From Spirochaetota bacterium (GTDB lineage: Bacteria; Spirochaetota; UBA4802; UB4802): a stretch of DNA of 64,000 bases. The notes under the pieces are model-generated. The model ran no database searches, was not told the DNA's origin, and saw only the letters and a program-made list of their open reading frames with translations. This document shows, piece after piece, positions 3,501 through 63,264 of the stretch. How positions within the stretch are numbered: the first letter of the stretch is position 1; each line of letters begins with the position of its first letter. A program made the translations under genes and the position numbers. The stretch covers positions 1,746 through 65,745 of the forward strand of contig JARYLT010000004.1 of assembly GCA_029907515.1 (NCBI GenBank), in the 5' to 3' direction.

Positions 3501-3964
3501 GTGAGCCCTTTGAAAGTGAAGTTATGGTTGGTTACATCTACATGTTGAAATTAGCTCATATGGTTGATGATAAGATTCATGCACGTTCAACAGGTCCATA
3601 TTCACTGGTAACACAACAGCCATTGGGTGGTAAAGCACAGTTTGGCGGACAGCGATTGGGCGAGATGGAAGTATGGGCACTTGAAGCATACGGTGCTGCA
3701 TACACATTGCAGGAACTCCTCACAGTGAAATCTGACGATATGTTAGGGCGAGCACGGATTTATGAAGCGATAGTTAAAGGTATTAACACCACTTCGCCTG
3801 GAATTCCGGAATCTTTCAATGTACTGGTTCAGGAATTGCGGGGCCTTGCACTGGATGTCAGAATTTACGATGAAAATGGTAATGAGATAAATCTCTCTGA
3901 ATGGAGCGAAGGCTTAAGTAAGCCAAAGAGAAAAATCAAGCTTGAAACGCTTGAAAATGAGTAA
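515..3964 (+). CDS. rpoB: DNA-directed RNA polymerase subunit beta
   Basis: 1149 aa with hallmark motifs ([49 protein letters not shown]). AGGTG RBS upstream. Confidence 0.98.
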
Positions 3965-4009
3965 TCTGTACATTTTAAAAAATTTTAATTAAGGTAAGAA
4001 GGTAATACG

Positions 4010-7000
4010 ATGAGAGATTTTAACGATTTCAATTCTATTCAAATAAAATTAGCTTCTCCTGATATGATCCGCGAGTGGTCATATGGTGAAGTAAAAAAAC
4101 CTGAAACAATTAACTATCGAACCTTAAAACCTGAAAGGGATGGCCTCTTTTGCGAAAGAATATTTGGGACAACAAAAGAATGGGAATGCTATTGTGGCAA
4201 GTTCAAGTCAATACGATATAAAGGAGTAGTATGCGACCGTTGTGGCGTAGAGGTTACACATTATAAAGTCAGGCGTGAGCGTGGTGGTCATATTGAATTA
4301 GCATGCCCGGTAGCGCATATATGGTATTATCGCTCAGTACCATCACGAATAGGGTTATTGCTTAATTTGACAGTAAATGAGTTAAAATCTATTCTGTATT
4401 ACGAAAAATATGTTGTTATTGACCCTGCTGATTCTGATCTGAAATATGGCGATGTTATAGATGAAGATACTTTTAACCATTATTATGAAACATACGGCGA
4501 TGAATTTGTAGCCGATATGGGTGCAGCTGCAATCAAGGAAATGTTAAGAAGAATAGACCTTGATGGCGAAGCACGTGAATTGCGAAGCAAAATTGCAGGT
4601 CAGGATAAACTGAAGGTAGATAAAAAAGATATTAAACGACTTGAGCTTATAGAAGCTTTCAGGGATTCAGGCAACCGGCCTGAGTGGATGATACTTGATG
4701 TTGTACCGGTTATTCCTCCAGAACTGAGGCCAATGGTTCAGCTTGATGGTGGAAGGTTTGCAACATCTGATCTTAATGACCTTTACAGGCGAGTTATTAA
4801 CAGAAATAACCGGTTAAAACGATTACTGCTTCTGAGAGCACCTGATATTATAGTAAGAAATGAAAAACGCATGCTCCAGGAAGCGGTGGATGCACTGTTT
4901 GATAACAGCAAGCGCAAACGCGCAGTGAAAGGCAAAGCCAATAGACCTCTTAAGTCACTCAGTGACATGTTAAAAGGCAAACAGGGGCGGTTTAGACAGA
5001 ACCTTCTGGGTAAGCGAGTTGATTATTCCGGGCGTTCAGTTATTGTTATTGGCCCTGAGCTTAAACTGCATCAGTGTGGATTGCCAAAGAAGATGGCTGT
5101 GGAATTATTTAAGCCATTTATCATGAAGAGACTGGTAGATAAAGGTTTTGTACAGAATATAAAATCTGCCAAAAAGATGGTGGAAAATGAAAGGCCTGAA
5201 GTGTGGGAAGTTTTAGAAGAGGTTATTGCCGAACATCCGGTACTATTAAACCGTGCTCCCACACTACACCGGTTAGGAATTCAGGCGTTTGAACCAGTAC
5301 TCGTAGAGGGGAAGGCTATCAAGCTGCATCCATTGGTATGCCATGCATACAATGCTGACTTTGATGGCGACCAGATGGCTGTTCATGTCCCACTATCGCC
5401 ACGAGCTCAGATAGAGTGCTGGACATTAATGCTTTCAGCAAATAATTTGCTTAACCCCGCAAATGGTCAACCTATCGTAACTCCAACCCAGGATATTGTT
5501 CTTGGAATATATTATTTAACCTCTGAACTGCGAAGCGAAAATGAATTTCTTCCCTTTTTTGGCTCAATGGATGAAGTATTATATGCTCTGGAATTCAGAC
5601 AAATAAAATACAGAACAAAGATTAAATATCTTATGGATGGTGAATTTGTTGAAACAACACCAGGAAGGTTAATCTTTAATGAAAAATTACCTGCAGGGTT
5701 CCCTTTTGTTAATTATACTGTCAATGATAAGGAACTTTCAAAAATCATTTCTAAAATTTTTAGAGAATATGGCCCAACTGCAACAGTAAAGGTACTTGAT
5801 GACATCAAGGAATTAGGCTATAAATATGCAACATATTTTGGGCCAACTATCTCAACAAGTGATGTAAAAGTGCCTCCATTGAAGGATGAATTAATTAAAA
5901 AATCTAATGAGATGCTGGAAAAGATTGAGAATGAATATCGTAATGGTTATATAACCAATGAAGAGCGGTATAATCGTGTTATTGACCTCTGGACAAAAAC
6001 TAATGAAGATGTTACCGATGTTATGTTCAATACAATGTCGCAGGATGCTGATGGATTTAATCCCATTTATATTATGGCACAGTCCGGAGCACGAGGCAGT
6101 AAACAGCAGATACGGCAGCTTGCAGGTATGCGTGGCCTTATGGCAAAACCCAGCGGTGAAATTATTGATGTCCCCATCAAGTCAAATTTTAAAGAAGGGC
6201 TGACAGTACTTGAATATTTTATCTCCACTAACGGTGCACGAAAAGGCTTGGCAGATACTGCATTAAAAACCGCTGATGCCGGGTATTTAACACGAAGGCT
6301 TGTTGATATAGCCCAGGATGTTGTTATAACAATGGATGATTGTGGTACCTCAGTAGGAATTGATGTGGGTGCATTAAAAGAAGGTGATGAAGTTGTGGAA
6401 TCTATTGGTTCAAGGGTACTGGGGAGAACCTTGCTTTATGATCTGTATCATCCGGTTACCAATGAAGTTATTTGCAAGAGTGGTGAATTAATTACTGAAG
6501 AGATTGCAGAAAAGATAGATGAATTGGGCCTTGATCGTATAACAATCAGATCGGTGTTAACGTGTGAAGCTCGACATGGTGTTTGTGCACGCTGTTATGG
6601 CAGAAATTTAGCTACTGCACGTATGGTTGATATTGGTGAAGCTGTAGGGATTATTGCGGCGCAATCTATTGGTCAGCCAGGTACACAGCTTACCATGCGT
6701 ACCTTCCACATTGGTGGTACTGCATCTCACGTTGTTGAAGAAAGTGAAATCAGTTTTAATTACCCTGTTTATGTAAAGGAAACTACCTTCAAAACAGTAA
6801 AAACTGAAGATGAACAGGGTGAGAAGAAAACCATATCTGTACGGCGTGGTTATATCGTTTTACAGCGATTACTGGAAGAGATACCTGTAAAAAGTGGTGA
6901 ACTGGTGGTAAATGATGGTGACAGAGTATATAGCGGAACACCAATAGTAAAAAAATCTGATGGGTCATTTATTGTCACAACAAAATCAGGTGTGGTTAAA

Positions 7001-8215
7001 CTTGATAAATCCAGGGCATATATCCTTGGAGAGCCCAATATGATTCCTGTTAATATAGGTTCTACCATTTATTTAAAAACTGATAAATTTTATCATGTAA
7101 ATCCACAGACGGGGAAAACTGATGTACTGGTGAAATTTGATCCCTGGTTTGAGCCAATATTAACTGAAATAAATGGGAAGGTGAAATTCATTGATATTGA
7201 AATCAATAAGAGTATGAGGGAAGAGATAGATCCTCAGACAAATCAGCTCAAGCGTATTATCGTTGAAGCAAAGACGGAAAAGTTGCAGCCAGCCATAGAA
7301 GTTTCATCTGCTGATGAAACCTTCAACTACCTGTTGCCAAAAGGTGCTCACCTGTTTGTTGATGATGGACAGACAGTAAAAGCAGGTATGGTTCTGGCAA
7401 AAATACCAAAAGAAGTTGAAAAGACAAAAGATATTACGGGTGGCTTGCCACGAGTAGCAGAACTGTTTGAAGCACGTACCCCCAAGGATAAGGCAACCAT
7501 ATCAGAGATTGACGGGCGTGTCAAAATTGGCGATACCGTCAAGAATAAACGTAAGATAATTGTCACCGGTGATGATGGCGAAGAAAGAGAATATCAGATA
7601 CCTGCTTCCAAGTATTTACGGGTTCAGGATGGCGACTGGATCAATAAAGGTGATAAAATTGATGATGGCCCAATTGATCCGCATGATATCCTTGATATTA
7701 AAGGACCGCGCGAACTTGAAAAATTCCTTGTAAACGAAATTCAGGAAGTGTATCGTTTGCAGGGTGTTCAGATAAATGATAAGCACATTGAGATAATTGT
7801 GCGACAGATGTTACGGAAAGTCATCATAGAAGATCCTGGTGATACAAGCTTTGTCGTAGACCAGATAGTTGATAAGTTTGAATTTGATGATGAAAATATG
7901 CGTGTTGAAAAAGAAGGTGGTAAAGCAGCATCTGCAAAACCGGTACTGATGGGTATAACAAAATCAGCTCTTAATACGGAATCGTTTATATCTGCTGCAT
8001 CGTTCCAGGAAACAACCCGCGTGTTAACTGAAGCGGCAATTAAAGGAAAGATTGATAGATTACGTGGATTAAAGGAAAATGTAATCATTGGTCATTTGAT
8101 TCCGGCAGGTACTGGTGTACGTGAGTACAATAAGGTTACTGTATACCAGAAAGTTAAGGGCGACTTAGATGGCGTTGCAAAGGAAGTAGAGGAGGAAATC
8201 CCTGCTGAGAAATAA
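4010..8215 (+). CDS. rpoC: DNA-directed RNA polymerase subunit beta'
   Basis: 1401 aa with an N-terminal zinc site (CYCGKFK...CDRCGVEV), the catalytic [12 protein letters not shown] motif and the trigger-loop region. Follows rpoB. Confidence 0.98.
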
Positions 8216-8731: not shown

Positions 8732-9211
<480 letters not shown>

Positions 9212-9315: not shown

Positions 9316-11394
9316 ATGGGAAGAGAGTTACCATTACACAGGACACGAAATATTGGGATAATGGCTCATATTGATGCAGGTAAAACCACATTAACCGAGC
9401 GCATCCTCTATTATACTGGCAAGACCTATAAAATTGGAGAAGTCCATGATGGCACTGCAGAGATGGACTGGATGATTCAGGAAAAGGAGCGAGGGATTAC
9501 CATCACTGCTGCTGCTACCACAACCTACTGGAAAAATACGCGTATCAATATCATAGACACTCCGGGACATGTTGACTTTACCGTTGAGGTGGAACGAAGT
9601 CTGAGAGTTTTAGACGGAGCTATAGCCGTTTTTGATGCCGTTGCCGGAGTGGAGCCACAGAGTGAAACAGTATGGCGACAGGCTACACACTACAATGTAC
9701 CCAGAATATGTTTTGTAAATAAAATGGACAGAGTGGGAGCAGATTTTGAGAATTGTCTCACCATGATAAAGGAACGTCTGTATTCCATACCACTGCCCTT
9801 ACAAATTCCCTATGGGAAGGAAGATAGCTTCAAAGGTGTTATAGATATAGTCCAGATGAAAGCACTGGTGTGGACTGACCAGTTAGGTGAGCACTATGAC
9901 GTTGTACCAATACCTGAAGAATACCATGATGAAGCTTTATATTACCGTGAACACCTGATTGAACTGGTTGCAGAATACGATGAGGAAATGCTGGAAAAAT
10001 ATTTGGAAGGTGTGGAAATAACAGAAACTGAGCTGAAACGTGCCATCCGCAATGCAACATTAAAAACTGCATTGTTTCCGGTATTTTGTGGCAGTGCATT
10101 GAAAAATAAAGGTGTTCAGCCACTGATTGATGCCATTATTGACTATCTGCCTTCGCCTAAGGATATTCCAGCTATTAAGGGGCATGATGTGCATCATGAT
10201 GATAACATCATGGAGCGCCATCCTGATGACAAGGAACCTTTCTGTGCACTGGTATTTAAGATAGCAAGTGACTCGTATGTGGGGAAGCTCTGTTATATCA
10301 GAGTGTACTCAGGGCATCTGGCAGCTGGTGATACTGTTCTGAATGTCAACAAGCAAAAGAAAGAACGTATTGGCCGGATCTTACGAATGCATGCCAATGA
10401 CCGGGAAGACATCAAGGAAATATACACAGGGGATATTGCCGCACTTGTGGGTTTGCGGTTTGCCCAGACAGGCGATACCATCACATCGGTTGATGCGCCA
10501 ATACTTCTGGAAAAGATGGAATTCCCGGAGCCGGTAATAGCCCGGGCAGTTGAGCCAAAAACACGGGCAGATCTTGAAAAATTGCATGCAGTGCTGAAAC
10601 GATTGGAAGAAGAGGATCCAACGTTTTTTGTCAAAATTGATGAGGAAAGCGGGCAAACGATTATTTCAGGTATGGGTGAGCTGCATCTTGAAATCATTGT
10701 TGACAGGTTACAGCGTGAGTTCAATATGCTTGTCAATGTTGGCAAACCACAAGTTGCCTATAAAGAAACAGTCACAGGAGTAGCAAAGGCTGAAGGAGTA
10801 TTTGAAAAAGAGATTGCCGGAAAATTGCAATATGGCCATGTGCTACTTGAAGTAAGTCCGTGCGATAGTTCCTTTGAGTTTGTTTCAAAGGTGGATACAG
10901 CGGTATTACCGAAAAATTGTATAAAAGCTGTGGAAATGGGTTGCAGGGATGCACTCAGTTCCGGGGTAATAGCTGGATATGAAATGACAAAGATACGAGT
11001 GATACTTGAAGATGCAAAATACCGTGAGGATGCTTCAGTTGACCATGCATACCGTATTGCTGCAACAATTGCTTTAAGGGATGCAGCAAGGAAAGCTTCC
11101 CCAATGTTGCTTGAGCCTGTTATGAAACTGGAAGTTGTGGTACTTGATGAATATATGGGTGACATAATCAATGATATTAATTCGCGGCGTGGAAAAATTG
11201 AACATATTGATATTCGTGGTATGTTAAAGGTCATAGATGCATACGTTCCACTGGCTGAAGCGTTTGGGTATGCAACGGCAATACGTTCACTGAGCCAGGG
11301 GAGGGCATCGCACACGTTACAGTTTAGCCATTATGAAGTTGTACCACAGGCTGTCATGGAAAAGATTCTTGGCAGTTACTATCGGCCTGTATAG
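9316..11394 (+). CDS. fusA: Elongation factor G
   Basis: 692 aa with G-domain motifs [14 protein letters not shown] and NKMD, plus the EF-G domain IV/V region. Confidence 0.97.
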
Positions 11395-11647: not shown

Positions 11648-11679
11648 GAAATTTATTATTTTTATAAAGGAGATAACAA

Positions 11680-12894
11680 ATGGCAAAGGCAAAATTTGAA
11701 AGAACCAAACCACATGTTAATGTTGGAACAATAGGCCATATTGACCATGGCAAGACTACGTTAACATCTGCAATTACAAAAGTTCTTGCGGCTGCGTATG
11801 GTGGCAATAATAAACCTGTAGAATTTGATCAGATAGATAATGCACCAGAAGAAAAAGCACGAGGTATAACGATTGCGACTTCACATCAGGAGTATGAGAC
11901 ACTAAATCGGCATTATGCGCATGTTGACTGCCCTGGCCATGCTGACTATATTAAGAACATGATTACCGGTGCTGCTCAGATGGATGCTGCTATTCTTGTT
12001 GTTGCAGCAACTGATGGCCCAATGCCCCAGACAAAAGAGCACGTTCTTTTGGCCCGCCAGGTTAACGTTCCTTATATCATTGTTTTCCTTAATAAAGTTG
12101 ACATGCTTGATCCAGCTGACAGGGATGAGCTTGTTGAACTTGTTGAAATGGAAGTTAGAGACCTTCTTAACAAATATGAATTCCCTGGTGACACAATTCC
12201 AATTATACCAGGTTCTGCGTTGAAAGCCATGCAGTGTGGTTGTGGCAAGAAAGAGTGTGAAGCATGTGAACCAATTTTAAAATTGGCTGAAACCCTTGAT
12301 ACGTATGTACCTGAACCACAGCGTGACAGGGATAAACCATTCCTTATGCCTATTGAAGACGTATTTTCAATTACTGGCCGTGGCACTGTTGTTACCGGAA
12401 GGATTGAGCGTGGTGTAGTAAGAACTGGTGATGAAGTTGAGATTGTTGGTTTTGGCGAAACCAAGAAGACAGTTGTTACCGGTGTTGAAATGTTTAGAAA
12501 GATTCTTGATGAAGGTATTGCAGGTGACAACGTAGGATGTCTGCTCCGTGGTACAGGCAAAGATGAAGTTGAGCGTGGGCAGGTTCTGGCCAAACCAGGT
12601 TCGATAACTCCGCATAAGAAATTTGAGGCTGAAGTATACGTATTGTCAAAAGAAGAAGGTGGTCGTCATACTCCGTTCTTCAGTAACTATCGCCCACAGT
12701 TTTATTTCAGAACTACTGACGTTACCGGCATCATTCAGTTGCCTGAGGGTGTTGAGATGGTTATGCCAGGTGACAATATTAAGATGACGGTAGAGCTTAT
12801 TACCCCTGTTGCAATGGAAGAAACTCTCAGGTTTGCTATACGTGAGGGTGGAAGGACTGTTGGGGCTGGTGTAGTTGCTAAAATATTAGAATAA
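11680..12894 (+). CDS. tuf: Elongation factor Tu
   Basis: 404 aa with [21 protein letters not shown] and SAL motifs. Carries a Cys-rich insert [12 protein letters not shown] after the SAL motif. Confidence 0.98.
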
Positions 12895-12923
12895 ATAATT
12901 TATTAATTTATAAATACAATGGC

Positions 12924-12964
12924 AATAGTTGTCAGGCTGGTGTACAATCAACCTGACAACTATT
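12924..12964 (+). terminator. Intrinsic terminator after tuf
   Basis: AATAGTTGTCAGG(C)TG pairs with CA(A)CCTGACAACTATT, a roughly 16-bp stem with one mismatch, followed by TTT. Confidence 0.6.
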
Positions 12965-14727: not shown

Positions 14728-15012
14728 ATGGATGTTAATGATATCATCATACGCCCTGTTATTACAGAAAAGGCAACTGAACTTGCAAAACAAAACAAAT
14801 ACGTGTTTAGAGTACACAAGAAAGCAAATAAAGATATGATAGAAAAGGCTATAAGCAGTATTTTTGGTGTTACACCAGTAAAAGTAAATGTTATGATTGT
14901 ACGGGGCAAACGTAAAAGAGTACGGTATAACTACGGATATACAGCATCATGGAAAAAGGCGATAGTTACGTTAAAAGAAGGCGATAAAATTGAAGTTTTT
15001 GAATCAAAATAA
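14728..15012 (+). CDS. rplW: 50S ribosomal protein L23
   Basis: 94 aa, IIRPVITEKA...FRVHKKANK. Operon position. Confidence 0.95.
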   Translation: MDVNDIIIRPVITEKATELAKQNKYVFRVHKKANKDMIEKAISSIFGVTPVKVNVMIVRGKRKRVRYNYGYTASWKKAIVTLKEGDKIEVFESK

Positions 15013-18880: not shown

Positions 18881-19429
18881 ATGGCAGCACGATTGCGTAT
18901 ACTATATGAAAAGGAAATAAAGAAGCGGCTGATGGATAAATTTAAATATTCATCAGTTATGCAGATTCCTAAAATTGAAAAAATTGTTTTGAATGTTGGT
19001 GAAGGTGAAGCTCATTCTAATCCTAACCTGCTTAAATCAATTATTGAGGAACTGTCGCTTATTACCGGTCAGAGAGCGGTTAAAACTGTAGCGCGGAAAT
19101 CAATTGCAGCGTTTAAAATCCGTGAGGGGTATGATGTTGGTGCTCGTGTTACGTTGCGTGGTGACAAGATGTATGAGTTTTTAGACAGGCTTGTGAATGT
19201 TGCTCTGCCACGAGTACGTGACTTCCGGGGACTATCGCCCAATTCATTTGATAATGCAGGTAATTATAATTTTTCAGTAAAAGAGCAGATAATTTTCCCG
19301 GAGATAAACCTGGATAAAGTTGAGAAAATCTATGGGATTAATATAACAATTAAAACAACAGCAAAAAATGCCAGTGAGGCACGTGCGTTGCTTGAAGAAT
19401 TCAGATTTCCATTCCAAGAAGCGAGGTAA
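18881..19429 (+). CDS. rplE: 50S ribosomal protein L5
   Basis: The ATG at 18881 gives [40 protein letters not shown], colinear with known L5 N-termini, with GAGGG RBS 6-7 nt upstream. The ORF track starts 4 codons earlier, at a GTG (18869). Confidence 0.95.
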
Positions 19430-20059: not shown

Positions 20060-20605
20060 ATGTCTAGAATAGGGAAAAAACCGATAGTGATACCAAATGG
20101 TGTATCAGTTGATCTGAGTGGTGAAATGATTACTGTTAAAGGTCCTTTAGGAACCTTGCAATATAAATTGCAGGATGCTATTAATGTAGTTATTGATAAC
20201 AATGTTATTAATATAGCAAAAAAGGATGAACAGTCCAAAGACAAGAAAGTCAATGCATTATGGGGATTAACAAGGGCATTGATACATAATATGGTTGTTG
20301 GCGTTTCAAGTGGATTTGAAAAAAATTTGGAGATAGTTGGTGTTGGATACAGGGCAACCCAGAAAAGCAACGATGTTGAGTTTCAGCTTGGGTATTCCCA
20401 TAGCATACTGTTTTCACCGCCTGCTGGAATAAAGGTTGAAGTCGTTGAGCCAACAAAATTAAAAGTTAAAGGCGTTGATAAACAGTTAGTTGGCCAGGTG
20501 GCAGCAAATATTCGCAAATTACGCCCACCAGAACCATATAAAGGCAAGGGTATCCGTTATAAGGATGAACAGATACGAAGAAAAGCTGGCAAGACCGGTA
20601 AGTAA
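20060..20605 (+). CDS. rplF: 50S ribosomal protein L6
   Basis: The ATG at 20060 gives MSRIGKKPIVIPNGV, a canonical L6 N-terminus, with AAGGGG RBS. The ORF track extends 15 codons upstream into rpsH. Confidence 0.95.
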   Translation: MSRIGKKPIVIPNGVSVDLSGEMITVKGPLGTLQYKLQDAINVVIDNNVINIAKKDEQSKDKKVNALWGLTRALIHNMVVGVSSGFEKNLEIVGVGYRATQKSNDVEFQLGYSHSILFSPPAGIKVEVVEPTKLKVKGVDKQLVGQVAANIRKLRPPEPYKGKGIRYKDEQIRRKAGKTGK

Positions 20606-28543: not shown

Positions 28544-28749
28544 ATAATAGTCTTTTTTATTGTATCGGTAACATATAAAGACTGCTTAACAGTATATTTT
28601 TTGTAGTAATAAATGGATTATTTATCGGTAACTATCGCCCAAAAAATTTTAAGCAATAGTTACTGGTAAAGTAAATATTTGATTGCAAAGATACAGGTGA
28701 TACAATTATATGAAAACAATAACTGTATTTTTGTTCTGGGGATGAACGT

Positions 28750-45291: not shown

Positions 45292-46400
45292 TGGAGATAG
45301 TTATCGGAATGAAACGATACATTGTAGCAATATCATTGTTACTGGTATTAATACCCTATGTGGGACGAGCACAAACCATTGCAATTACCGATATGGCAGG
45401 AAGGCACGTACATATCCCAAAAAAGGTTAACAGAATAGTAGCTCTCAGTGCATCCTTACGATATATAGTTTATTTGCAGGCATTTGATAAAGTTGTTGCG
45501 GTTGAAGGTATTGAAAAACTAAAATCTATAAGAGGTATTAATACATCAGGCAAGCCTTACTGGTTAGCGATAGCTCATAGCATTGATTCAATACCAGATA
45601 TAGGAGAAGGTGGCCCTGGTAAATTACCTGATTTTGAAAAATTGATAATGGTTAAGCCGGATGTTGTGTTTACGTTTGAATCCGACAATGCTAATCTCAT
45701 ACAGAAGAAAACAGGTATACCATGTATTGTGATTGCCTATGCAGGTACCAATGGATTTGTCATTGATGATGTAAAAAAGACGTTTGTGTTTTTAGGAAAT
45801 ATACTGGACAGAACACAGCGGGCAAAACAGTTAAATGCCTATATTGATAATTGCATTGCTGATCTGGCTGGCAGAGTGGTAGGAGTAAATATAAAAAAAG
45901 TATATATTGGAGCAGTAAGTGCTCGTGGTTCTCACGGTATTACAAGTACTGAAAGCAACTATCCTCCACTACAATGGCTTAAAACACATAACGTTGCGGA
46001 TGCCACAGGCATTAATGGACATGCGTTTATAAGTAAGGAACAGATTATAATGTGGGACCCTGAGTATATATTTATAGATACAGGTGGATTGCCTCTGGTG
46101 GAAAATGATTATATAAAAAATAAAGTGTTTTATCGCAACCTTAAAGCAGTGACACATAATTCGGTGTATACAGTGTTTCCATATAATTTTTACAGGACCA
46201 ATATTGAAATAATGATAGCCAATGCATATTATATGGGGAAGATATTATATCCTGAAAAGTTCAAAGATATTAACATCAGGAAAAAAGTTGGTGAAATTTT
46301 TACTCACTTTTTAGGAATTGATCCGTATAATGAATTACTAAAGCATTATAAGGGATATGGAAAAGTTGAATTTACAGAACAGGGAATCAGAATATATTAA
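45288..46400 (+). CDS. ABC transporter periplasmic substrate-binding protein (FecB/BtuF-type, iron-complex or corrinoid class)
   Basis: Signal peptide. ITDMAGRHVHIPKKVNRIVAL and PDFEKLIMVKPDVVF are patterns of the class III PBP family. ATGA overlaps the upstream stop. Confidence 0.75.
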   Translation: MMEIVIGMKRYIVAISLLLVLIPYVGRAQTIAITDMAGRHVHIPKKVNRIVALSASLRYIVYLQAFDKVVAVEGIEKLKSIRGINTSGKPYWLAIAHSIDSIPDIGEGGPGKLPDFEKLIMVKPDVVFTFESDNANLIQKKTGIPCIVIAYAGTNGFVIDDVKKTFVFLGNILDRTQRAKQLNAYIDNCIADLAGRVVGVNIKKVYIGAVSARGSHGITSTESNYPPLQWLKTHNVADATGINGHAFISKEQIIMWDPEYIFIDTGGLPLVENDYIKNKVFYRNLKAVTHNSVYTVFPYNFYRTNIEIMIANAYYMGKILYPEKFKDINIRKKVGEIFTHFLGIDPYNELLKHYKGYGKVEFTEQGIRIY

Positions 46401-50507: not shown

Positions 50508-51164
50508 CTAAAAATGTTTTGGTTCACTATGCCATAGTATTTTATGTAATTGAATATTAAGCCGCACGTTAAGCCTGTCATGTAAAATATACTCTGCTAA
50601 TTGTTGTGGCTCCATTGTGCTCCAGACAGGCGAAAAATTTATGACACATGGTACATTAGCTAGATAGTTTTTCATAAACTCCTTAGAATAATTATAGTCA
50701 TAGTCATCTGCAATAACAAATTTTATTTCATCATGCGGTTTAAGATACTGTATATTAGAAATGTTAAATGAATCTGCATGGCCACTTGAAGGTGTTTTAA
50801 CATCAACAATTTTATGTACCTGTGATGGCACGTGTTCAATAGAAATGCTTCCGTTGGTTTCCAGTTGCAGGGGATAATTTTTTCTACAGAGAATATCAAG
50901 AAGTGTCAATGTGTGTTCCTGCATTAATGGTTCGCCACCGGTAATGGTGATGTGATTTAGTGTGGGATATTTCTCTATTGTTTGTATAATGTGGGCGATA
51001 GTTACCGGTAAGCCAGTCCTTGCATAGGGAGTATCACACCACCTGCAGTTAAGATTACAGCCTGCAAGCCGTATGAAAAGCGAAGGGAAACCTGTGCGAG
51101 TAGTTTCACCCTGAAGCGAATAGAATATCTCATTGACACATAGTGTGATAGTATTTGTATTCAT
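50508..51164 (-). CDS. queE: 7-carboxy-7-deazaguanine synthase
   Basis: 218 aa, EIFYSLQGETTRTGFPSLFIRLAGCNLNCRWCDTPYA, the QueE signature. Confidence 0.88.
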   Translation of the reverse strand: MNTNTITLCVNEIFYSLQGETTRTGFPSLFIRLAGCNLNCRWCDTPYARTGLPVTIAHIIQTIEKYPTLNHITITGGEPLMQEHTLTLLDILCRKNYPLQLETNGSISIEHVPSQVHKIVDVKTPSSGHADSFNISNIQYLKPHDEIKFVIADDYDYNYSKEFMKNYLANVPCVINFSPVWSTMEPQQLAEYILHDRLNVRLNIQLHKILWHSEPKHF

Positions 51165-51530: not shown

Positions 51531-51780
51531 ATACAATTCGGATTCAGAGTGTCTATTGTGCAAAACTTTATTTACTGGTATTGGTACACGTTGAAACCTT
51601 AAGGCTATTCAACAGTAACTATCGCACAAAATACGCAATTGCTAAAAATATGCAATAATAAAAATTACCGGGGGATTAATTGATTTACAATAAAAAATGG
51701 TTGAAATAAAATTGCAAAAATCTGAGAGTACGTGTAAATTGTAACGGTGATGAAATTTATAATCGTGGGGTGTTAACAGT

Positions 51781-53287: not shown

Positions 53288-55360
53288 ATGGCTAACTGTA
53301 ATTTTGTATGCGAAATTGGCACTGAAGAAATTCCAGCAGGGTATATCCCATCAGCTATTGAACAGGTAGAAAAAATTGTAACAGAAGGTTTACAGTCATA
53401 TCGCATTGCATTTGGGAAGTGTACGGTGTATGCAACACCACGTCGTGTTGCAATACTGGTATATGACATGGCCGATAGTCAGTCGGTAGATTATGAGGAA
53501 CTCAAAGGTCCTTCGGTAAAAGCAGCCTATGATGACAGGGGCACCCCAACCAGGGCATTAACCGGTTTTCTTGAAGGGAATAAAATTAAACTTGAGGATA
53601 CATACATACAGAAGACCAGCAAAGGGGATTATATCTATGCAAAGCGTAAAGTTGAAGCACAACCTGCTACAACAATTATTCCTGTCATTATTGAAAAGAT
53701 TATTAATGAGCTAAATTTTCCAAAGCGGATGCGCTGGAACGTTAAACGTGTATCATTCCCGCGGCCAGTTAACTACATATGCGTACTTTTTAATGATGCA
53801 GTGGTTCCCTATTCAATAGATGGCATTGATTTTGACAATAAGGTACGAGGTCATTATATACAGTATAACCGTATGATACCTTTATCACGATGTGACGAGT
53901 ATATTCCCACGCTGGAAAACAACGGGGTCATAGTTGATCATAATAAGCGAAAAGCTATAATTCATGAACAATTGCAAAATGCAGCAAAACAATTGGGTGG
54001 TGTGCTTGTTGAGGATGATGAATTGCTTACCACCGTTACCTTTTTAACAGAAATGCCATATGTGGTAATATGCAGCTTTGATGAAGGATTCTTATCTATA
54101 CCTGATATAGTACTGATAACTGAAATGAAGGAGCACCAGAAATATTTTGCTGTGCGCGATAGTAAAGGGAAATTACTTCCTAAATTTTTAGTTATTTCAA
54201 ATAACCCACCAACAGAGCATATCGTAAAGGGGAATCAGCGTGTAATTAGAGCACGGTTTACAGATGCGCGTTTCTTCTTTGAAGAAGACCGTAAAGTCCC
54301 ACTTGCAGGCAGAGTGGATATGCTTAAAAGCATCCTGTTCCATAAGGAGTTGGGTTCTATCTACGATAAAGTTGAAAGGATGCAAACAATAGCAAAGGTT
54401 ATTTGCAATGAGCTATCGCTTAATACGCAAATTACCCAGAAGATTCAGCGGGCTGTCATGCTATCCAAAACTGACCTGACGACAGCACTGGTGTTTGAGT
54501 TTACGTCCCTGCAGGGGCAAATTGGCAAAATATATGCGCTGCTTGATGGTGAAGATGAGGAAGTGGCACAGGCTATTGATTTCCAGTACAGGCCGCGTTT
54601 TCAGGGGGATGTGCTTCCGGAACATATTGTGAGTATTGTTGTTTCGCTGGCTGAAAAAATTGATAACATATTTGGTTCGTTTTCTGTTGGAAATATCCCC
54701 AAAGGTTCTGCCGACCCATATGCACTGCGACGGCAAGCTGCTGCAATTGTGGATATGCTTGTTGAACGAACAATCCATCTTGATTTAGCAAACGTATTCA
54801 GGGAAGTTTCATCGCAATACAGTAATGGGGATAAGCTTGTTGAACCAATACTTGAGTTTATTAATGGCAGAGCCAAGACATTTTTATATGAAAAGCAGTT
54901 TGCCTTTGATGAGGTTAATGCATGTTTAGCAGTTGGCTGTTATGATTACTATGAGCTGTTTCTCAGGGCTCAGAGCATTCATGAATTCCGTAAGGATAAG
55001 GGTTTTGGTGATCTTTTGATTGCATTCAAACGCATGAACAATATTGTCAACGCATTTGTTAAAAAGAATCCTGGTTATGTCTTTTCATTTAATCCTGATG
55101 CGCTGATAATAGATGAAGAGAAACGTTTATATAGTTTTTTCAACAATAAGGAAAAAACCATAAAAGAATATATTGCAGAAAACAAGTATAGAGAATTGTT
55201 CCTTTTGCTTATTGAAGGTAAAGAGATTATAGATACATATTTTGATAAAGTCATGGTGATGGATGCTAACACTTCGATTCGCGACAACAGGTTGGGAATG
55301 TTGCACTATATCCTGACGCTATTTACCACACTTATTGATTTTTCACAGATTCAGGAGTAA
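53288..55360 (+). CDS. glyS: Glycine--tRNA ligase beta subunit
   Basis: 690 aa. N-terminal FVCEIGTEEIPAGYI, QKYF and DPYALRR motifs of GlyS. Confidence 0.92.
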   Translation: MANCNFVCEIGTEEIPAGYIPSAIEQVEKIVTEGLQSYRIAFGKCTVYATPRRVAILVYDMADSQSVDYEELKGPSVKAAYDDRGTPTRALTGFLEGNKIKLEDTYIQKTSKGDYIYAKRKVEAQPATTIIPVIIEKIINELNFPKRMRWNVKRVSFPRPVNYICVLFNDAVVPYSIDGIDFDNKVRGHYIQYNRMIPLSRCDEYIPTLENNGVIVDHNKRKAIIHEQLQNAAKQLGGVLVEDDELLTTVTFLTEMPYVVICSFDEGFLSIPDIVLITEMKEHQKYFAVRDSKGKLLPKFLVISNNPPTEHIVKGNQRVIRARFTDARFFFEEDRKVPLAGRVDMLKSILFHKELGSIYDKVERMQTIAKVICNELSLNTQITQKIQRAVMLSKTDLTTALVFEFTSLQGQIGKIYALLDGEDEEVAQAIDFQYRPRFQGDVLPEHIVSIVVSLAEKIDNIFGSFSVGNIPKGSADPYALRRQAAAIVDMLVERTIHLDLANVFREVSSQYSNGDKLVEPILEFINGRAKTFLYEKQFAFDEVNACLAVGCYDYYELFLRAQSIHEFRKDKGFGDLLIAFKRMNNIVNAFVKKNPGYVFSFNPDALIIDEEKRLYSFFNNKEKTIKEYIAENKYRELFLLLIEGKEIIDTYFDKVMVMDANTSIRDNRLGMLHYILTLFTTLIDFSQIQE

Positions 55361-56029: not shown

Positions 56030-57361
56030 TTACAGGGGTATCATGGCTTTTTTTGTCTGGCCATTCCAGAATAGCTTAAAGGACAATTTTGTTGGGGATA
56101 CTGGAGCCACTTTCAGTTCTCTGTCCCAGCGATCATGAAGTTCAATGACCTTTTCTACACATTGTTTTGAAAAATCAAAATACTTCTGGCTACTGGTATT
56201 CTTCTTTTTGTACAGTTCATTTTCTTTTTTAATAAATTCATCTTCAAGTGTATGGATAGCAGGGGCGATAGTTCTCTGGAAATAATCCCATTTGAAAATG
56301 GCCTGACGGTGAATCTTTTCATGCATCCACCAGTACACGTCAGGTGAGTAAGTGCTTGTTTCATTTGCCGGGAAATAATCTATTTCTTTTCCAATAAGAT
56401 AAAATGGCATGAAGACGCTTGTACAGGTTCCTGACGAGCCAGTAGCCCAAAAGACTGGAGTGTCTTTGCGCAGATGGGCAACAAATGCAGCAACGGATTG
56501 ACTTGGACGGGTAGGAAGTAGTGATGCATGCATACACACCGTTCCCATATCAGTTTTATCTGGTGAAATATATTCATGGTCGCTGCCATGATCACGTAAA
56601 AATGCAAACATACTTTGAGGTGTTATGGATCCAGAATGTTGCATTGCACAACGTGTTGTCCGTGATTGCCGTGCAGCACATCGTGAAAAGTAGGTATAAA
56701 ACCAATCAGAAAAGCACTCTTTAAAGTTAAAGGTTTTACCTTTTTTCAGATATCCTTTTTTGCGGGCATAATCCTCAATATTTTTTGATGAATAGTGGTA
56801 TTCCTCTTCTATGGTTAATCCATTAGAAATACTGCGTATACCATCAACTTTTATTGCAACCCAGTGTTTGTTAGCAGTTTCAAGGACATAGGCTTCGTTA
56901 GGGTCAGCAAAAATAAATGAATTATGGTAATATAATTTATGTTCCATTCCAGCATTACTACCCTGCCCATAGCGTTCTATGAGTTCGGTGGAAAGCATGA
57001 GTGCATCATATGCAGTTTTACAGCGTTCCAAAGCCAGACGCATAATATCCATACCTAAAAGTCCGGTTTTTTCATAGGGTTCTTTGGTAAATACAGCCTC
57101 ATTCCCAATAGCAAGGCCATATTCATTTGCCCCCATTTCACAACCCCACATCCAGAATGGGGTTGAAATTAATATCTCATGTGTGCTTTTTACCTGCGGT
57201 ATGGATATATAGGTGCATTGAACGGCTGTTTCATTGCCCCAGTTTCGCCTGGCAATATATTTTAATAACTGTGCTTCATTTGCTTCCCTGTCACTGTTTT
57301 TGGCTAAGATTACACTGCCGTCAGCAGTGGCTTTACTGGTGGCAACAATGGTATCACACAT
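56030..57361 (-). CDS. C69-family (secernin-like) dipeptidase, Ntn-hydrolase type
   Basis: The N-terminus MCDTIVA...AKNSDR has the nucleophile Cys at position 2. 443 aa. Confidence 0.8.
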   Translation of the reverse strand: MCDTIVATSKATADGSVILAKNSDREANEAQLLKYIARRNWGNETAVQCTYISIPQVKSTHEILISTPFWMWGCEMGANEYGLAIGNEAVFTKEPYEKTGLLGMDIMRLALERCKTAYDALMLSTELIERYGQGSNAGMEHKLYYHNSFIFADPNEAYVLETANKHWVAIKVDGIRSISNGLTIEEEYHYSSKNIEDYARKKGYLKKGKTFNFKECFSDWFYTYFSRCAARQSRTTRCAMQHSGSITPQSMFAFLRDHGSDHEYISPDKTDMGTVCMHASLLPTRPSQSVAAFVAHLRKDTPVFWATGSSGTCTSVFMPFYLIGKEIDYFPANETSTYSPDVYWWMHEKIHRQAIFKWDYFQRTIAPAIHTLEDEFIKKENELYKKKNTSSQKYFDFSKQCVEKVIELHDRWDRELKVAPVSPTKLSFKLFWNGQTKKAMIPL

Positions 57362-57677: not shown

Positions 57678-57718
57678 AAAAACCTCCATAGAGTATAGTT
57701 AAAAAATTTGGCGCAGGT

Positions 57719-57748
57719 AAAATAAAAAACCTACTGCCATGCAGTAGG
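57719..57748 (-). terminator. Intrinsic terminator of the serine-hydrolase gene
   Basis: CCTACTGC / GCAGTAGG stem with a 3-nt loop. On the minus strand it is followed by TTTTTTATTTT. Confidence 0.7.
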
Positions 57749-57858
57749 AGCCATCAGCCGGAAGGCGTTTAACGGGGGACCCCATCCCCTGTAGAGTAAG
57801 TATAGTATAGAATACTTTAAAAAAGTAGCACTTTTGTCAATATATTAAGAAAATATTT

Positions 57859-59370
57859 TTAGGTGTTTTTATTTTTTTCAGGTATAAAAAAATACATAAG
57901 CAAAACAACGCCACAAAAAGCAAGACAATACCCTGCCCATACTGAAGCTTCAGGGAAAACGGAAGTAATAAAAAGATAGTCCTGATTAACAGCCCATAAA
58001 AGTATGCCAAATAAGCAACAGGCAACACAAAGTTTCAGTATCTGATTAGGTGAATATCTTTTCTGAATGAGCATGAGTGATCGTGTATGTAACACTAATC
58101 CCTTTAATAGACGATATACGTATATCAAAAGAATCATGAATATCAGATATACTAGAATCCATAGTGCATATTCTGCATAGATAATATTACTCATTCCTAC
58201 AGAATCAAATCCAATCCACTGTGCCCAATCATTCAGAATATATGCAAAAAATGGCCAGCTGCGTTGGCTATTGGTTAAAATTACAATACCATCGCCAGTT
58301 TCGGGTATTGAATGGAAGTGTGTCATCCATCCTGTTCCCTGCCCTCCATGTGATACTGCCATTACATTGTTTTTTGAAAATTCAATAAAATGCCCTAATC
58401 CATACCATGGGAAAGCAAAGCCATACAGGCCAGGTATTTTCACAGTGGGATTATATAATGCCTGTATAGATTTGTGATTCAGTACTTTTGTGCCAGTGTT
58501 ATTGAATTTGGTCATGCCTGCAGTGACAAACTGTGTAATATCTTCAATTGTTGAAAATAAGCCACCAGCACCTTTTTCAGGATATACATAAGGAGGAACA
58601 GGTTTACCATTGAGGGTATATCCGTTGGGGAATGGTTGGAAGCTTTTGCTCCATTGATAGCTTGAGTGGTTCATGCCTAAGGGCTGTAAAATTTCCTGGT
58701 GCATATACACGGCAAAAGGTTTGTTCGTTACCTCTTCAATCAGCAATTCAAGCAGATTAAATCCTGTATTTGAGTAGGAAAATGTTGAACCAGGAGATGC
58801 CATCATGACAGCATCTCTGTAAAGGCTTTCTCGTAATGGTGGGATTACATCATCCGGTGCATACCGCACACCGATTGTACCCAGGGGTAGCCCTGCACTG
58901 TGGCTTAATAACTGCCGTATGGTTATTGCTTCAGGATGAAATGCAGATGGTGGAAATTTCCATGTTTTCAAATGTTTGATAATATGTTCATCCAGAGATA
59001 TAGCTCCACGCTCAACCAGTTTTAAAATACCCCACGCTGTAACTGATTTTGAAATTGACTCAACGCGGCAAGTTGTTTCCAGCTTCATGGGTATTGTTTT
59101 TTCTTTGTCTGCAAAGCCGTATGCATTTGCCCACAATATTTTCCCTTGCCTGATAATAGCAATATTTACTCCAGGAATTTCATATTTTCCCATTAAAACT
59201 TTTATACGATGGTCAAAGTACTGTAAAAAGTCATGTTCTGTAGTTTTTGATGGTATGGTGGATAAGGGACAAGGATAAAATGCTTTAAAAAAAATAATCA
59301 GTGAAAGAAAAATTGCAACTAACAGTATAAAAAATAATAGTGTTGTTTTTTTTAAATGGCGATAGTTCAT
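57859..59370 (-). CDS. Serine hydrolase (beta-lactamase / PBP family) with a C-terminal multi-TM domain
   Basis: SISK (SxxK) motif in CRVESISKSVTA, and YSNTGF. Three to four hydrophobic helices in the last ~120 aa. Confidence 0.8.
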   Translation of the reverse strand: MNYRHLKKTTLLFFILLVAIFLSLIIFFKAFYPCPLSTIPSKTTEHDFLQYFDHRIKVLMGKYEIPGVNIAIIRQGKILWANAYGFADKEKTIPMKLETTCRVESISKSVTAWGILKLVERGAISLDEHIIKHLKTWKFPPSAFHPEAITIRQLLSHSAGLPLGTIGVRYAPDDVIPPLRESLYRDAVMMASPGSTFSYSNTGFNLLELLIEEVTNKPFAVYMHQEILQPLGMNHSSYQWSKSFQPFPNGYTLNGKPVPPYVYPEKGAGGLFSTIEDITQFVTAGMTKFNNTGTKVLNHKSIQALYNPTVKIPGLYGFAFPWYGLGHFIEFSKNNVMAVSHGGQGTGWMTHFHSIPETGDGIVILTNSQRSWPFFAYILNDWAQWIGFDSVGMSNIIYAEYALWILVYLIFMILLIYVYRLLKGLVLHTRSLMLIQKRYSPNQILKLCVACCLFGILLWAVNQDYLFITSVFPEASVWAGYCLAFCGVVLLMYFFIPEKNKNT

Positions 59371-59387
59371 AGTAATATAATCCTTTC

Positions 59388-61523
59388 TTAAAAATTGTTT
59401 TTTGTTTGGACTACGGATTGAAGCATATCAATCTGTGACAGGATTTTTGTTAGGGTCTTTGCTAACATTTCGGTATTTTCATATACGGCATTTGTAATGG
59501 TAACAAGCTGCTGTATTGTTGAACTAATCTCTCCAATAGTTATTTTTTCTTCCTGTGTGGCGCTTGTAATCTGCGAAGAACCCTGCAATACAAGTGCCAT
59601 ATTTTCTTCGATGCTTTTTGTTAATTGCTCCTGTGATATGCAAAAATCAAGGATTGTGTCTATTGCATGATTAACCATATAAACAGAGCGTTCAACATCT
59701 TCATTTGAGTATACAACTGTGCCCATAAGGATTGTCTGGTTTTCAATATCAGTAACTATGTCCGATAAAATTGCCTGGATATTTTTTGATTGTTCTAAGG
59801 ATCTATCTGCTAATTTCCCAATTTCATCAGCTACAACGGCAAAACCGCGCCCATACTCGCCTGCCCGTGCAGCTTCAATTGAAGCGTTAAGTGATAACAG
59901 ATTGGTTTTTTCAGCTATATCATTAATGGTTTCGGTTATTGTTAATATGGTGTCCGAATAGTTTTTTATTTTTTCTATGCCTTTAAGTGCTTCAGAAAGG
60001 TGTTCTTTTGTTACAGCTGTTTGCCCCTGACTTTTATAGCTCAGTTTGACTGCTGTTTTAGCTGCATCGGTAATATGGCCAATACCTTTAATTAATTCCA
60101 TTAACAGGTCTCTATTTTTATTAAGAATTGTATCCTGATGCTTGGAATTAGAAGCAATGATGTCTACCGTGGTTGAAAATTCTTCCAGGGCTGCTGATGT
60201 TTGTTCAATGCTGGTGGTCTGATCATGCATGCTATTTTGCAAAGTACGTGCAGAACTTTCAACTTCCTTTGCTACATGCTGTAATTCCCCAATTGACTGA
60301 TTGATTTTTTGTACTATCTGTATCAGGTCAGCATTCTTCTTTTCAATATATTGTTTTGATTCAAGCAGTTCCTGTGCCAGTTTTGCAGAGCGTTGTGACA
60401 AAATTGCGCCAATGCCTATAATTAATGCGGGGTACCCCAAATTTATCCAGAAAAAGTTGGTATAAAAAATCCCTGATACTGCAAGTGAATCATGGCCTAC
60501 ACAGATCATCATAAAAATATAGGGCATTAGCAGTGTTTGTGCTTCTTTTTTATTATTTCGTATACCCTTTATAATAAGTGCTCCCCACAGTATTTGAACA
60601 ATAAGCCCAAATGATCCAATAACCTGGAATCGCCAGCCTGTTACAGGATCATGTTCAGTAGCAGAAAGGCTTAAAATTATCATACATGCAGCAGCAATTG
60701 TAATAATAATTCTGAGTGTCCTGTTCAAGCTATCTGTCACATTTTCAAAGAAGAAGTATACAACTATCGCAATAACTGCAGTCAGCGCATAGTATATTTT
60801 ATCCTGTGTATTAAAGTCCATAATCCAGTAATGTGGCAAATAAAAATGCATTGCACTTATACACCACAGGAGGGAAACAATTGCAAAATATAATGTAAGC
60901 ACATCTTTGTTTTTAAAATAAAAGTACAGGGCAATAATAGCTAACAGGAATGTAAGGAAGCTGGTTGCAAGTGGTATATATTCTGCAAGTAATGAACGAT
61001 AAAAATTTATTACTTTGGCATTAGCAAGTGTAGTAATTAAGGGCACGCCATTGTATTCGGCATTCTGATTACTGAATACCCGTATGGCAATAATATTTGG
61101 CTGGCTGTATTTAACAATATGCAAAGGAATTACATAGTACCTGAAGATGTTCCATTCTGAATGAAAGTTAGGATATTCACTCCCAGCAGATCCAATTTTA
61201 TAACCATTGAAATATGTCTGCTCAACATCCCACACTTTTCCTAAAACAAAAGCAATATCATAATTTTTAAATGAATCTGGAATAACAACTGATTTTCTTA
61301 GCCATAGATACTGCCTGGATTTTTTTGGCGATAGTTTCCCGGGAAGGTTAATTGATTGCAGTGAAGAATCATCGAATTCAGGTTGTGCAAAGGAGTAGTT
61401 GTCGCCTGAATACAGTTTCCAGTCAGAGTGAATGTCAATAACAGGGTCACCTGTGTCACAACCAGTAATCCACAAGCATACTATGAGAATTGATAGTACC
61501 TGTACTGAACCGGGAACTTTCAT
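59388..61523 (-). CDS. Methyl-accepting chemotaxis protein with a 7TMR-DISM-type sensor
   Basis: Lipoprotein-like signal (WITGC), an extracellular beta-rich domain, about 7 TM helices, then the MCP signalling domain ([31 protein letters not shown]). Confidence 0.85.
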
Positions 61524-62142: not shown

Positions 62143-62214
62143 ATCAATTACATATACTTACTCTGACCCAGGTTTTTAATATGCTCACTCCATCTTATTT
62201 CTTATAACCTTTTT

Positions 62215-62913
62215 TTATTCGTCTCTACCACCTAAGAGTCCAGCCCTTATGAGGAAATACAACAGTGTCATTATTGCTGATGCTGCAGCAGCCACATACG
62301 TCATTGCAGCAGCGGATAGTACTTTGCTAACCCCTGTAAGCTCGCCTGCACTCACAATGCCATAACCTTGTAATATTTCTTTTGCACGTGATGAAGCATT
62401 AAATTCTACCGGTAGCGTAATAAGCTGAAAGAATACGACCAGGCTAAAAAGCAAAATTCCCAGTTTAACAAGCCCTAATGAACCCATAACAAAGCCTGCA
62501 AAAATAATTATCCATGAAAGGTTTGAACCAATGGACGCGGTTGGTGCTATGGCATTGCGCAGAACAAGAGGCCTGTATAGTTTAGCATGCTGAATAGCGT
62601 GACCAGTTTCATGTGCTGCCACACCAATTGCAGCAAGTGAATTGCTATTATATACTTCAGGTGAAAGCCTGACTACTTTCTTTATGGGGTCATAATGGTC
62701 TGATAAAAAACCTGTGGTTTCTTCAACCGGGATATGTGATAATCCATTTTGCTGTAAAATCATACGTGCCACATCTGCTCCTGTATGTCCGGATCGTGAT
62801 GGAATTTGAGAATATTTTTTAAAAGCACTTTTTACCCTGAACGAAGCCCACAGTGAAATTAGAAGAACAGGTGCCATCATCATCCAGTATAAGGGGTCAA
62901 TTCCCAAAAGCAT
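62215..62913 (-). CDS. Membrane zinc metallopeptidase (Zn_peptidase_2 / YpfJ-like family)
   Basis: 232 aa. HETGHAIQH (HExxH) between TM helices. Confidence 0.8.
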   Translation of the reverse strand: MLLGIDPLYWMMMAPVLLISLWASFRVKSAFKKYSQIPSRSGHTGADVARMILQQNGLSHIPVEETTGFLSDHYDPIKKVVRLSPEVYNSNSLAAIGVAAHETGHAIQHAKLYRPLVLRNAIAPTASIGSNLSWIIIFAGFVMGSLGLVKLGILLFSLVVFFQLITLPVEFNASSRAKEILQGYGIVSAGELTGVSKVLSAAAMTYVAAAASAIMTLLYFLIRAGLLGGRDE

Positions 62914-63264
62914 GTGTTACCTCCTGAAAAGTTTTTAATGTTCTAACATATTCCTTACTTTCATTGAACGTATGTTGCCTTTAAATGCATGCAGTGTATA
63001 ATATACAAAATATTGAGGCATTTGCAAAGTATTTTTGTATCAATCCTTTTGTTTTTGTTACAAAATTATTCCATGACGATTTATATCGATGTTTTATGTT
63101 TGACAGTTACCATAAATAGTATATATTGTTATATACGTTAATGTGTGCATGGTATTGTACACATACATAGGTACTATCGCATATCCCCGACATCATATGC
63201 GGAAAATTATACTATCCATTGTGTACCGGGAAATACTAAAAGGTTATTAAAAGGAACTATCGCC

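Follow-up and report, generated by a model that had tools for sequence, protein, structure and literature searches.

A genome-wide, strand-symmetric DNA word resembling uptake sequences in one clade of uncultured Leptospirales-like Spirochaetota

Why should a non-palindromic octamer recur on both strands of a spirochaete chromosome, inside conserved genes as well as between them? The question is raised by a stretch of 64,000 nucleotides (hereafter the window) from contig JARYLT010000004.1 (positions 1,746 to 65,745, forward strand; assembly GCA_029907515.1), whose source is an uncultured Leptospirales-like lineage of Spirochaetota known from digesters and sludge. A sequence-only reading of the window had singled out the word ACTATCGC and likened it to the DNA uptake sequences (DUS) of Neisseria and the uptake signal sequences (USS) of Pasteurellaceae, or to another genome-wide recognition word. 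Such sequences are treated as a trait of Neisseriaceae and Pasteurellaceae, and are described as having intragenic and intergenic copies, avoidance of stop-containing frames, inverted repeats, and a spread that is modelled as molecular drive (bioRxiv 10.1101/2025.10.24.684340). No report of an uptake-sequence-like word in Spirochaetota was found in the literature, where the word itself appears only inside primers. By comparing the window with related genomes and metagenomic loci, the frequency, orientation, codon context, distribution and evolution of the word were characterized, which provides a basis for weighing the mechanisms that may have produced it.

Over-representation, non-polarity and synonymous origin

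In the window, ACTATCGC occurs at 22 sites, 11 per strand, against an expectation of 0.62 from dinucleotide-preserving shuffles (maximum 4) and of 1.35 from an order-3 Markov model. Longer forms are in excess as well, including ACTATCGCC (13 copies, 0.18 expected), AACTATCGCC (10 copies, 0.11 expected under the Markov model) and GTAACTATCGCCCA (three exact copies, and 11 at two or fewer mismatches with 0.33 expected), and the enrichment of the word over expectation amounts to 16-95-fold. These recounts agree with the sequence-only reading in the number and strand balance of the 22 sites, in the 13 that extend to ACTATCGCC, and in the three exact copies of GTAACTATCGCCCA; its coordinates also stand except for two, since a site placed at 60773 lies at 60763 and the tuf copy of the 14-mer begins at 12683 instead of 12684. 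Seventeen or 18 of the window copies lie in genes and four or five are intergenic; at 63256, the program that called open reading frames (ORFs) assigned a doubtful antisense ORF. Because the surroundings of the 22 copies are unrelated to each other, a local duplication is ruled out.

A scan of metagenomes with the extended form RGNAACTATCGCCMAAAA returned 120 stretches, 36 of which combined 33-41% G+C with additional copies of the word. Dereplication left 25 independent loci (228 kb), in which 80 copies were counted after the seed copy of each had been left out, corresponding to one per 2,850 bp and equal to the density of the window. A comparison with a third-order Markov model, one of the checks that the sequence-only reading had proposed, gave 127 copies in the 292-kb pool where 6.8 were expected. 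ACTATCGC is the top over-represented 8-mer both in the window and in the pooled loci.

The word is also non-polar. GC skew is positive or zero throughout the window and, as it is never negative, no origin or terminus lies inside. Although the window thus lies on one replichore, the strand count is 11:11 and the orientations are interleaved along it. With 22 independent loci added to the window and each oriented by GC skew (the other three of the 25 had ambiguous skew and were left out), the G-rich strand has 53 copies and the C-rich strand 59; coding copies were similarly balanced (37 sense, 29 antisense). Chromosome words of the Chi type (RecBCD/AddAB), and FtsK-orienting polar sequences (KOPS) and SpoIIIE recognition sequences (SRS), are likewise over-represented 8-mers within genes, but they are strongly co-oriented with replication and the spirochaete word is not. 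The lack of strand or GC-skew bias therefore indicates that it is not Chi- or KOPS-like, as the sequence-only reading had argued from the equal strand counts, and a polar word can be regarded as effectively excluded.

Two further aspects of the arrangement were considered. Gap spacing between copies is not distinguishable from random (coefficient of variation 0.77, P = 0.13), and a spacing more even than random was rejected on the same values. Orientation switches at 17 of 21 adjacent copy pairs (window 3767-63264; binomial P ~0.004, calculated by hand); the independent loci do not replicate this (26 of 45 for gaps >1 kb), so that strand alternation was rejected as a feature and is probably due to chance in the window.

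Further analysis indicated that the word is imposed at the DNA level through silent codon choice. Every reading frame in which the word creates no stop codon is used, five in all; in the sixth it would read TAG. In the window, the frames are represented by GCG ATA GTn (AIV, seven copies), ACT ATC GCn (TIA, three), nnA CTA TCG Cnn (xLSx, three), nGC GAT AGT (xDS, three) and nAC TAT CGC (xYR, two). The frame assignments made earlier were correct, namely NYR(P) in tuf, LSP in rpoC and rplE, TIA in three genes, and AIV for the reverse word in rpoB, rplW and secY, with AIV now seen in four further genes. All occurrences of the compatible peptides were then counted, and the use of word-spelling codons was compared with the expectation from codon usage. 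Seven of the 12 AIV tripeptides in the window are spelled with the word (0.40 expected); in the independent loci, the five frames together contain 66 word-spelled peptides (5.5 expected), and the encoding of the motif reaches 8-60 times the codon-usage expectation in each of the five frames. The word requires rare codons, such as GCG (9% of Ala), CTA (6% of Leu) and TCG (9% of Ser). At orthologous positions, outgroups have synonymous non-motif variants (rplW GTAACAATTGC; rplE GGTCTTTCTCC; and, in tuf, AAYTAYCGTCC or AACTACAGGCC, both synonymous). The earlier claim of a DNA-level signal as opposed to a peptide motif is thus borne out by the five-frame codon excess and the synonymous outgroup variants. 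A codon or peptide artefact is effectively excluded, considering the two-thirds of copies that lie in conserved genes in five frames with unrelated flanks. Moreover, the truly codon-driven words of sister lineages, TAACACC and CAAGGTGG, serve as a negative control, being strongly strand-biased, unlike this word.

Clade-restricted spread, turnover and recombination

A SecY-based scan covered 185,579 species genomes, and 80 SecY loci were compared for word counts. The nearest relatives by SecY are Spirochaetia bacterium UBA2205 (listed by NCBI as unclassified Spirochaetia), isolate Uz-U4-13, and several assemblies labelled Leptospiraceae or Leptospirales; an identical RpsL is encoded on contigs from metagenomes and metagenome-assembled genomes. 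A Cloacimonadota origin, suggested by G+C content and habitat, was rejected, since SecY groups the window with metagenome-assembled genomes of Spirochaetota/Leptospirales. Six species-level genomes with SecY at least 97% identical contain 5-7 copies per 21 kb each, some of them being just ~80% identical to the window in DNA and still rich in the word. In the remaining 74 loci, sister lineages with a SecY identity of 81-87% among them, the count is 0-1 (per ~20 kb). Enrichment is therefore restricted to one genus-level clade (SecY at least 97%), and the comparison with related genomes that had been proposed earlier finds the word in the relatives within the clade and at 0-1 copies in sister lineages. 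Two public metagenome-assembled genomes that bear the title 'Leptospira biflexa', represented by the loci L129 (DYLU01000039.1) and L150 (DYLV01000045.1), have SecY 99% and 77% identical to that of the window; this label looks wrong, because SecY places them in these uncultured lineages.

Within the clade, the word is genome-wide. Tetranucleotide composition was compared with that of the window in loci of at least 5 kb with the motif masked, and 24 of the 25 loci carrying at least three copies had r = 0.83-0.95, with a mean r of 0.30 for loci of other G+C content. The exception, L218, lies outside the pool (r = 0.70), and one pool locus with two copies, L263, had an r of just 0.36 and may not be a member of the clade. 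By extrapolation, a whole genome would hold ~1,000 copies.

In the ribosomal genes of the sister loci L134, L138 and L164, the top words were TAACACC, with 11 of its 13 copies on the same strand, and CAAGGTGG, with 8 of its 9. These were rejected as dialects of the clade's word, being strand-biased codon effects. In some Desulfobaccales loci, AGGCCAAG reaches 14-15 copies per 20 kb, which is presumably another codon effect.

Individual sites are partly shared and partly different within the clade; the UBA2205 sub-lineage, for example, lacks the tuf site and has sites of its own. Since even close relatives differ in them, sites are still being gained and lost. The rpoC site at 5392 is a recent gain, because the relatives L002-L004 have ACTATCACC at this position. 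Retention is also observed: in spacers with flanks 70-87% identical, the word is usually kept, and the site at 31127 is retained in relatives with flanks merely 70-85% identical.

Over 18.6 kb, the metagenome contigs L005 and L008 match the window at ~99% identity, apart from a ~3-kb fusA-tuf block (window 9900-12900) at 85-90% identity, in which the fusA site at 10862 is replaced by GCTATCGC. The block is a clear case of import from a diverged lineage, and such an import within a 99%-identical background shows active homologous recombination between diverged lineages. A shorter dip in identity between these contigs and the window was noted near 5.5 kb.

Anatomy of the word and candidate mechanisms

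The core of the word is strict: most single-base variants occur at about the expected frequency, the only tolerated exceptions being G at position 1, T at position 7 and A at position 8, which reach ~4 times expectation. Outside the core, a weaker extended consensus reads T-rich..CAGTA-ACTATCGC-CC-AAAAA (written out as a 20-mer, TTATCAGTAACTATCGCCCAAAAA), so that the information content spans ~14-20 bp including the A-tract. The reverse complement of ACTATCGC is GCGATAGT; the core is non-palindromic and the flank consensus asymmetric. This anatomy bears on the idea that a biased repair or methyltransferase-linked process, of the very-short-patch-repair or highly iterated palindrome 1 (HIP1) type, makes the word without any DNA transfer. 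HIP1 of cyanobacteria (GCGATCGC) is also a highly iterated, lineage-specific octamer that is enriched in coding DNA independently of codon usage; it has been linked to methyltransferases and shares GCGAT with the spirochaete word, and restriction to one clade would fit a recently acquired enzyme. However, HIP1 is palindromic, and the spirochaete word is not and has a long asymmetric flank consensus; at ~14-20 bp with an A-tract, it is longer than typical methyltransferase sites. HIP1 is also denser than this word. Patch repair should, moreover, lower the frequency of precursor variants, yet none of them is depleted, and one-off variants of the C-to-T and G-to-A kinds stand at 0.8-1.9 times expectation. 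A 16-95-fold enrichment is also far above known repair-driven biases. This explanation is accordingly considered improbable.

About two-thirds of the pooled copies (84 of 127) lie within coding DNA, at 0.35 per kb; spacers are about twice as dense (0.7-0.9 per kb). Judged by spacer density, which is alike for convergent, divergent and tandem gene neighbours, the word shows no tie to promoters or terminators. Among the spacer copies, some are arranged as inverted pairs, overall 19-74 bp apart. Close pairs, with an A/T loop of 12-15 nt, form stable hairpins of -18 to -24 kcal/mol (z = -4.4 to -8.5); the pair at window 28628-28660, in a divergent promoter spacer, gives a hairpin of -17.9 kcal/mol (z = -4.4), one of its arms being a one-off copy that is perfect in relatives. 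Wider pairs, 43-74 bp apart around unrelated sequence, were found in at least eight unrelated spacers. One divergent pair, 65-67 bp apart, occupies the same spacer in three species (L225 1620-1693, L255 4511-4583, L251 8349-8423); these loci are just 74-83% identical, and the sequence inside the pair has diverged and holds a TTGATT-like box.

Such pairs could suggest remnants of miniature inverted-repeat transposable elements (MITEs) or of repetitive extragenic palindromic (REP) sequences. REP and MITE elements are intergenic with a conserved body; in contrast, the spirochaete word is largely coding with unrelated flanks, and the inner sequences of its pairs are unrelated between loci. A MITE origin of the spacer pairs was rejected for the last reason, and mobile-element remnants in general are so improbable as to be effectively excluded.

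In the main rival explanation, selection maintains the word throughout the genome as the recognition site of a DNA-binding or DNA-processing system that is peculiar to the clade and unrelated to uptake. The word might be bound by a nucleoid-organising protein, serve a nuclease or a defence system as an orientation-independent 'self' marker, or act as the packaging signal of a gene-transfer-agent-like particle. The palindromic pair in the divergent promoter spacer resembles a dimer operator, and the L225, L255 and L251 pairs are conserved across species in otherwise diverged spacers. A site of this kind would also have the same statistics, being genome-wide, symmetric, clade-restricted and placed on synonymous sites, and no competence genes were seen in the window or in a pattern-based screen of ~0.4 Mb. 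Known architectural sites (parS, matS, NBS and SBS), however, number tens per genome, as against the ~1,000 copies projected here; turnover among relatives is rapid, and because individual sites come and go so quickly, no single site appears essential. Random-like spacing, the lack of a preference for any spacer type, and the failure to identify a candidate protein also argue against this explanation, which is regarded as possible but rather unlikely. A packaging signal for a gene-transfer-agent-like particle would, for its part, likewise create a transfer-biased drive.

The most likely mechanism, given about an even chance, is that the word is a lineage-specific, uptake-sequence-like motif driven by uptake-biased molecular drive. 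Cells would take up or otherwise receive conspecific DNA through machinery that prefers word-bearing fragments, and homologous recombination would then exchange near-matches in the recipient for the word. The resulting drive would distribute the word equally between the two strands at positions where the encoded protein permits it, acting mostly through synonymous codon choice and leaving spacers denser. We infer that the bias arises at DNA uptake itself, with a receptor and competence machinery. The same drive may instead operate through another kind of sequence-biased transfer, such as packaging into gene-transfer particles, or the word may act as an orientation-independent 'self' marker.

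The likeness to known uptake sequences underlies this reading, and on genomic features it is well founded, because the word proved to be DNA-level and non-polar and the tests against a Markov model, local duplication and related genomes held; the function itself is proposed by analogy. The closest parallel is the USS of Pasteurellaceae (Hin-type AAGTGCGGT, Apl-type ACAAGCGGT). Both have a specific core with a weaker extended consensus and an A/T-rich flank, and USS has reportedly been described by Mell et al. in 2012 as a core plus AT-rich flanks. They also share strand symmetry, copies that are mainly coding and occur in all stop-free frames (about two-thirds of USS copies are in coding DNA in H. 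influenzae), denser spacers, hairpin-forming inverted pairs, a clade-specific distribution and turnover of individual sites. On the other hand, the spirochaete word is unrelated to USS in sequence, belongs to the phylum Spirochaetota, has about one-third of the density, and is genus-level where USS is family-level, without a visible terminator preference or demonstrable accumulation in phages. The DUS of Neisseriaceae (GCCGTCTGAA and dialects; receptor ComP) are similarly genome-wide, symmetric, over-represented 10-12-mers found in genes and spacers, with inverted repeats and confinement to related species. DUS are mostly intergenic or in terminators, whereas the spirochaete copies are mostly intragenic; in addition, no dialects were detected in the spirochaete sisters, at low power, and no ComP-like pilin was identified.

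Several observations weigh against uptake-biased drive. Selection for a binding function would give most of the same statistics. At one copy per 2.9 kb, the word is less dense than classical DUS and USS (~1 per kb). No terminator-type position preference was seen among spacer copies by spacer-type density, while about half of DUS and USS lie in predicted terminators (bioRxiv 10.1101/2025.10.24.684340). Dialect words in sister lineages were not detectable, the power of this comparison being low. No competence genes were found within the window, and neither prepilins nor PilB/T ATPases in the ~0.4 Mb of clade DNA screened with a crude and insensitive regular-expression search; altogether, the ~10% of a genome that was covered revealed no gene for competence, a type IV pilus or a receptor. 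We know of no natural transformation in Leptospirales, and Leptospira genetics relies on conjugation and electroporation. One report describes the delivery of DNA to pathogenic Leptospira by conjugation (PMC7815788).

Enrichment in phages could not be demonstrated either. Temperate Pasteurellaceae phages accumulate USS (PMC6776037). For the spirochaete word, a 14-mer scan of viral contigs yielded mostly chance single matches among those listed, together with two phage-like contigs with 3-4 copies among the viral matches listed, and an 18-mer scan of IMG/VR viral contigs yielded chance-level matches only. The L030 portal phage family has 26 copies in 734 kb (0.035 per kb), which is the background level. 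A 9.5-kb contig, L124 (IMGVR_UViG_3300020045_006625), encodes a large terminase subunit and two integrases and carries four copies, two of them inside the terminase gene; it could be a prophage of the clade. Its relatives contain one copy (93% identical) or none (65% identical), and its excess is not significant after multiple testing. With the L030 family at background and 0-1 copies in the relatives of L124, phage enrichment was dropped as support. To our knowledge, no phage is known to infect the clade.

The word has about an even chance of being a DNA uptake sequence, which would be the first from beyond the Proteobacteria. If so, an uncultured Leptospirales-like genus of digesters and sludge would be naturally transformable with an independently evolved, sequence-specific receptor, which would point to natural transformation in an abundant wastewater and digester group. 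Confirmation of the function would raise the number of independent uptake sequences to three and extend them to a further phylum. It is still debated whether uptake sequences are an adaptation for self-recognition or a by-product of a biased uptake machine, and a third case, in a distant phylum without known competence, young at the level of a genus and with sites turning over, would give this debate a new test system. The word could also be used as a sequence barcode for binning DNA of the clade and tracing gene flow. Should the cause be something other than uptake, it would mark an unknown genome-wide recognition system, and the hedge of the sequence-only reading, 'another genome-wide recognition word', still stands.

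Sites and neighbouring features in the window

The perfect copies of the word in the window are given in Table 1, together with the degenerate arm of the inverted pair and six one-off copies. The gene order runs from rpoB, rpoC, rpsL, rpsG, fusA and tuf through the S10, spc and alpha ribosomal operons to ~27.6 kb; beyond this point are genes for a TonB-dependent receptor, an FecCD-type ABC transporter, radical-SAM/queE-like proteins, a bactofilin and a chemoreceptor, as well as glyS.

Table 1. Copies of the word in the window (MCP, methyl-accepting chemotaxis protein)
Feature	Position	Strand	Remarks
ACTATCGC copy, rpoB, antisense (GCG ATA GTT = AIV)	3767..3774	-	conserved in L002-L008
ACTATCGCC copy, rpoC (CTA TCG CC = LSP)	5392..5400	+	
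Copy in fusA, antisense (xGC GAT AGT = CDS)	10862..10869	-	
GTAACTATCGCCCA in tuf (AAC TAT CGC CCA = NYRP)	12683..12696	+	
ACTATCGCC copy, rplW, antisense (AIV)	14958..14966	-	outgroups: GTAACAATTGC
ACTATCGCC copy, rplE (LSP)	19231..19239	+	outgroups: GGTCTTTCTCC and similar
ACTATCGC copy, secY, antisense (AIV)	23358..23365	-	
Intergenic GTAACTATCGCCCA followed by an A-run; left arm of inverted pair	28628..28641	+	
Degenerate copy ACTATTGC; right arm of inverted pair	28653..28660	-	perfect in L129-L131, L157
ACTATCGCC copy near start of 464-aa ORF, antisense (AIV)	31127..31135	-	
Copy in ORF-poor 1.3-kb gap	33268..33275	+	
ACTATCGCC copy, short-chain dehydrogenase gene (TIA)	35285..35293	+	
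Copy in 297-aa ORF, antisense (AIV)	39314..39321	-	
ACTATCGCC copy, minus-strand 424-aa ORF, antisense (GDS)	41111..41119	+	
GTAACTATCGCCCA in radical-SAM (queE-like) gene, sense (TIA)	50992..51005	-	
Intergenic copy, divergent genes on either side	51618..51625	+	
Copy in glyS, antisense (RDS)	54156..54163	-	
ACTATCGCC copy, peptidase C69 gene, sense (TIA)	56264..56272	-	
ACTATCGCC copy, start of beta-lactamase-family gene, sense (NYR)	59358..59366	-	
Copy in MCP gene, antisense (AIV)	60763..60770	+	
ACTATCGCC copy, MCP gene, sense (LSP), followed by an A-run	61327..61335	-	
Intergenic copy	63173..63180	+	
ACTATCGCC copy abutting ATG start codon (AAAAGGAACTATCGCCATG)	63256..63264	+	
One-off copy AACTATTGCC	12921..12930	-	
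One-off copy AACTATCTCC	20329..20338	-	
One-off copy AGCTATCGCC	35550..35559	-	
One-off copy AACTATCTCC	42689..42698	-	
One-off copy AACTATCTCC	45293..45302	-	
One-off copy AACTATCACC	63336..63345	+	

In addition to the word itself, a fluoride riboswitch (RF01734, 53 bits) was found at window 57738-57798 (-), and the ORF that lies downstream of it (57516-57689, -) encodes 57 hydrophobic-rich residues. A full-length crcB could not be recognised after the riboswitch, and the next gene on the same strand is that for peptidase C69.

A second symmetric word, (G)GCTCTGACCC(C), was also observed in the clade, with 22 copies in the 292 kb of clade DNA where 2.3 were expected, and with unrelated flanks. 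It is nearly absent from ribosomal-operon loci of both in-group and outgroup (0-2 copies of CTCTGACC per locus). Four copies lie within 200 bp in L217 (2423-2614), and three are present in the window, at 62161-62168 (+), 33652-33659 (-) and 19067-19074 (-). The 1.3 kb at window 32469-33803, in which ORFs do not exceed 92 aa and neither Rfam families nor tRNAs were matched, holds one copy of each word (33268 for the first and 33652 for the second).

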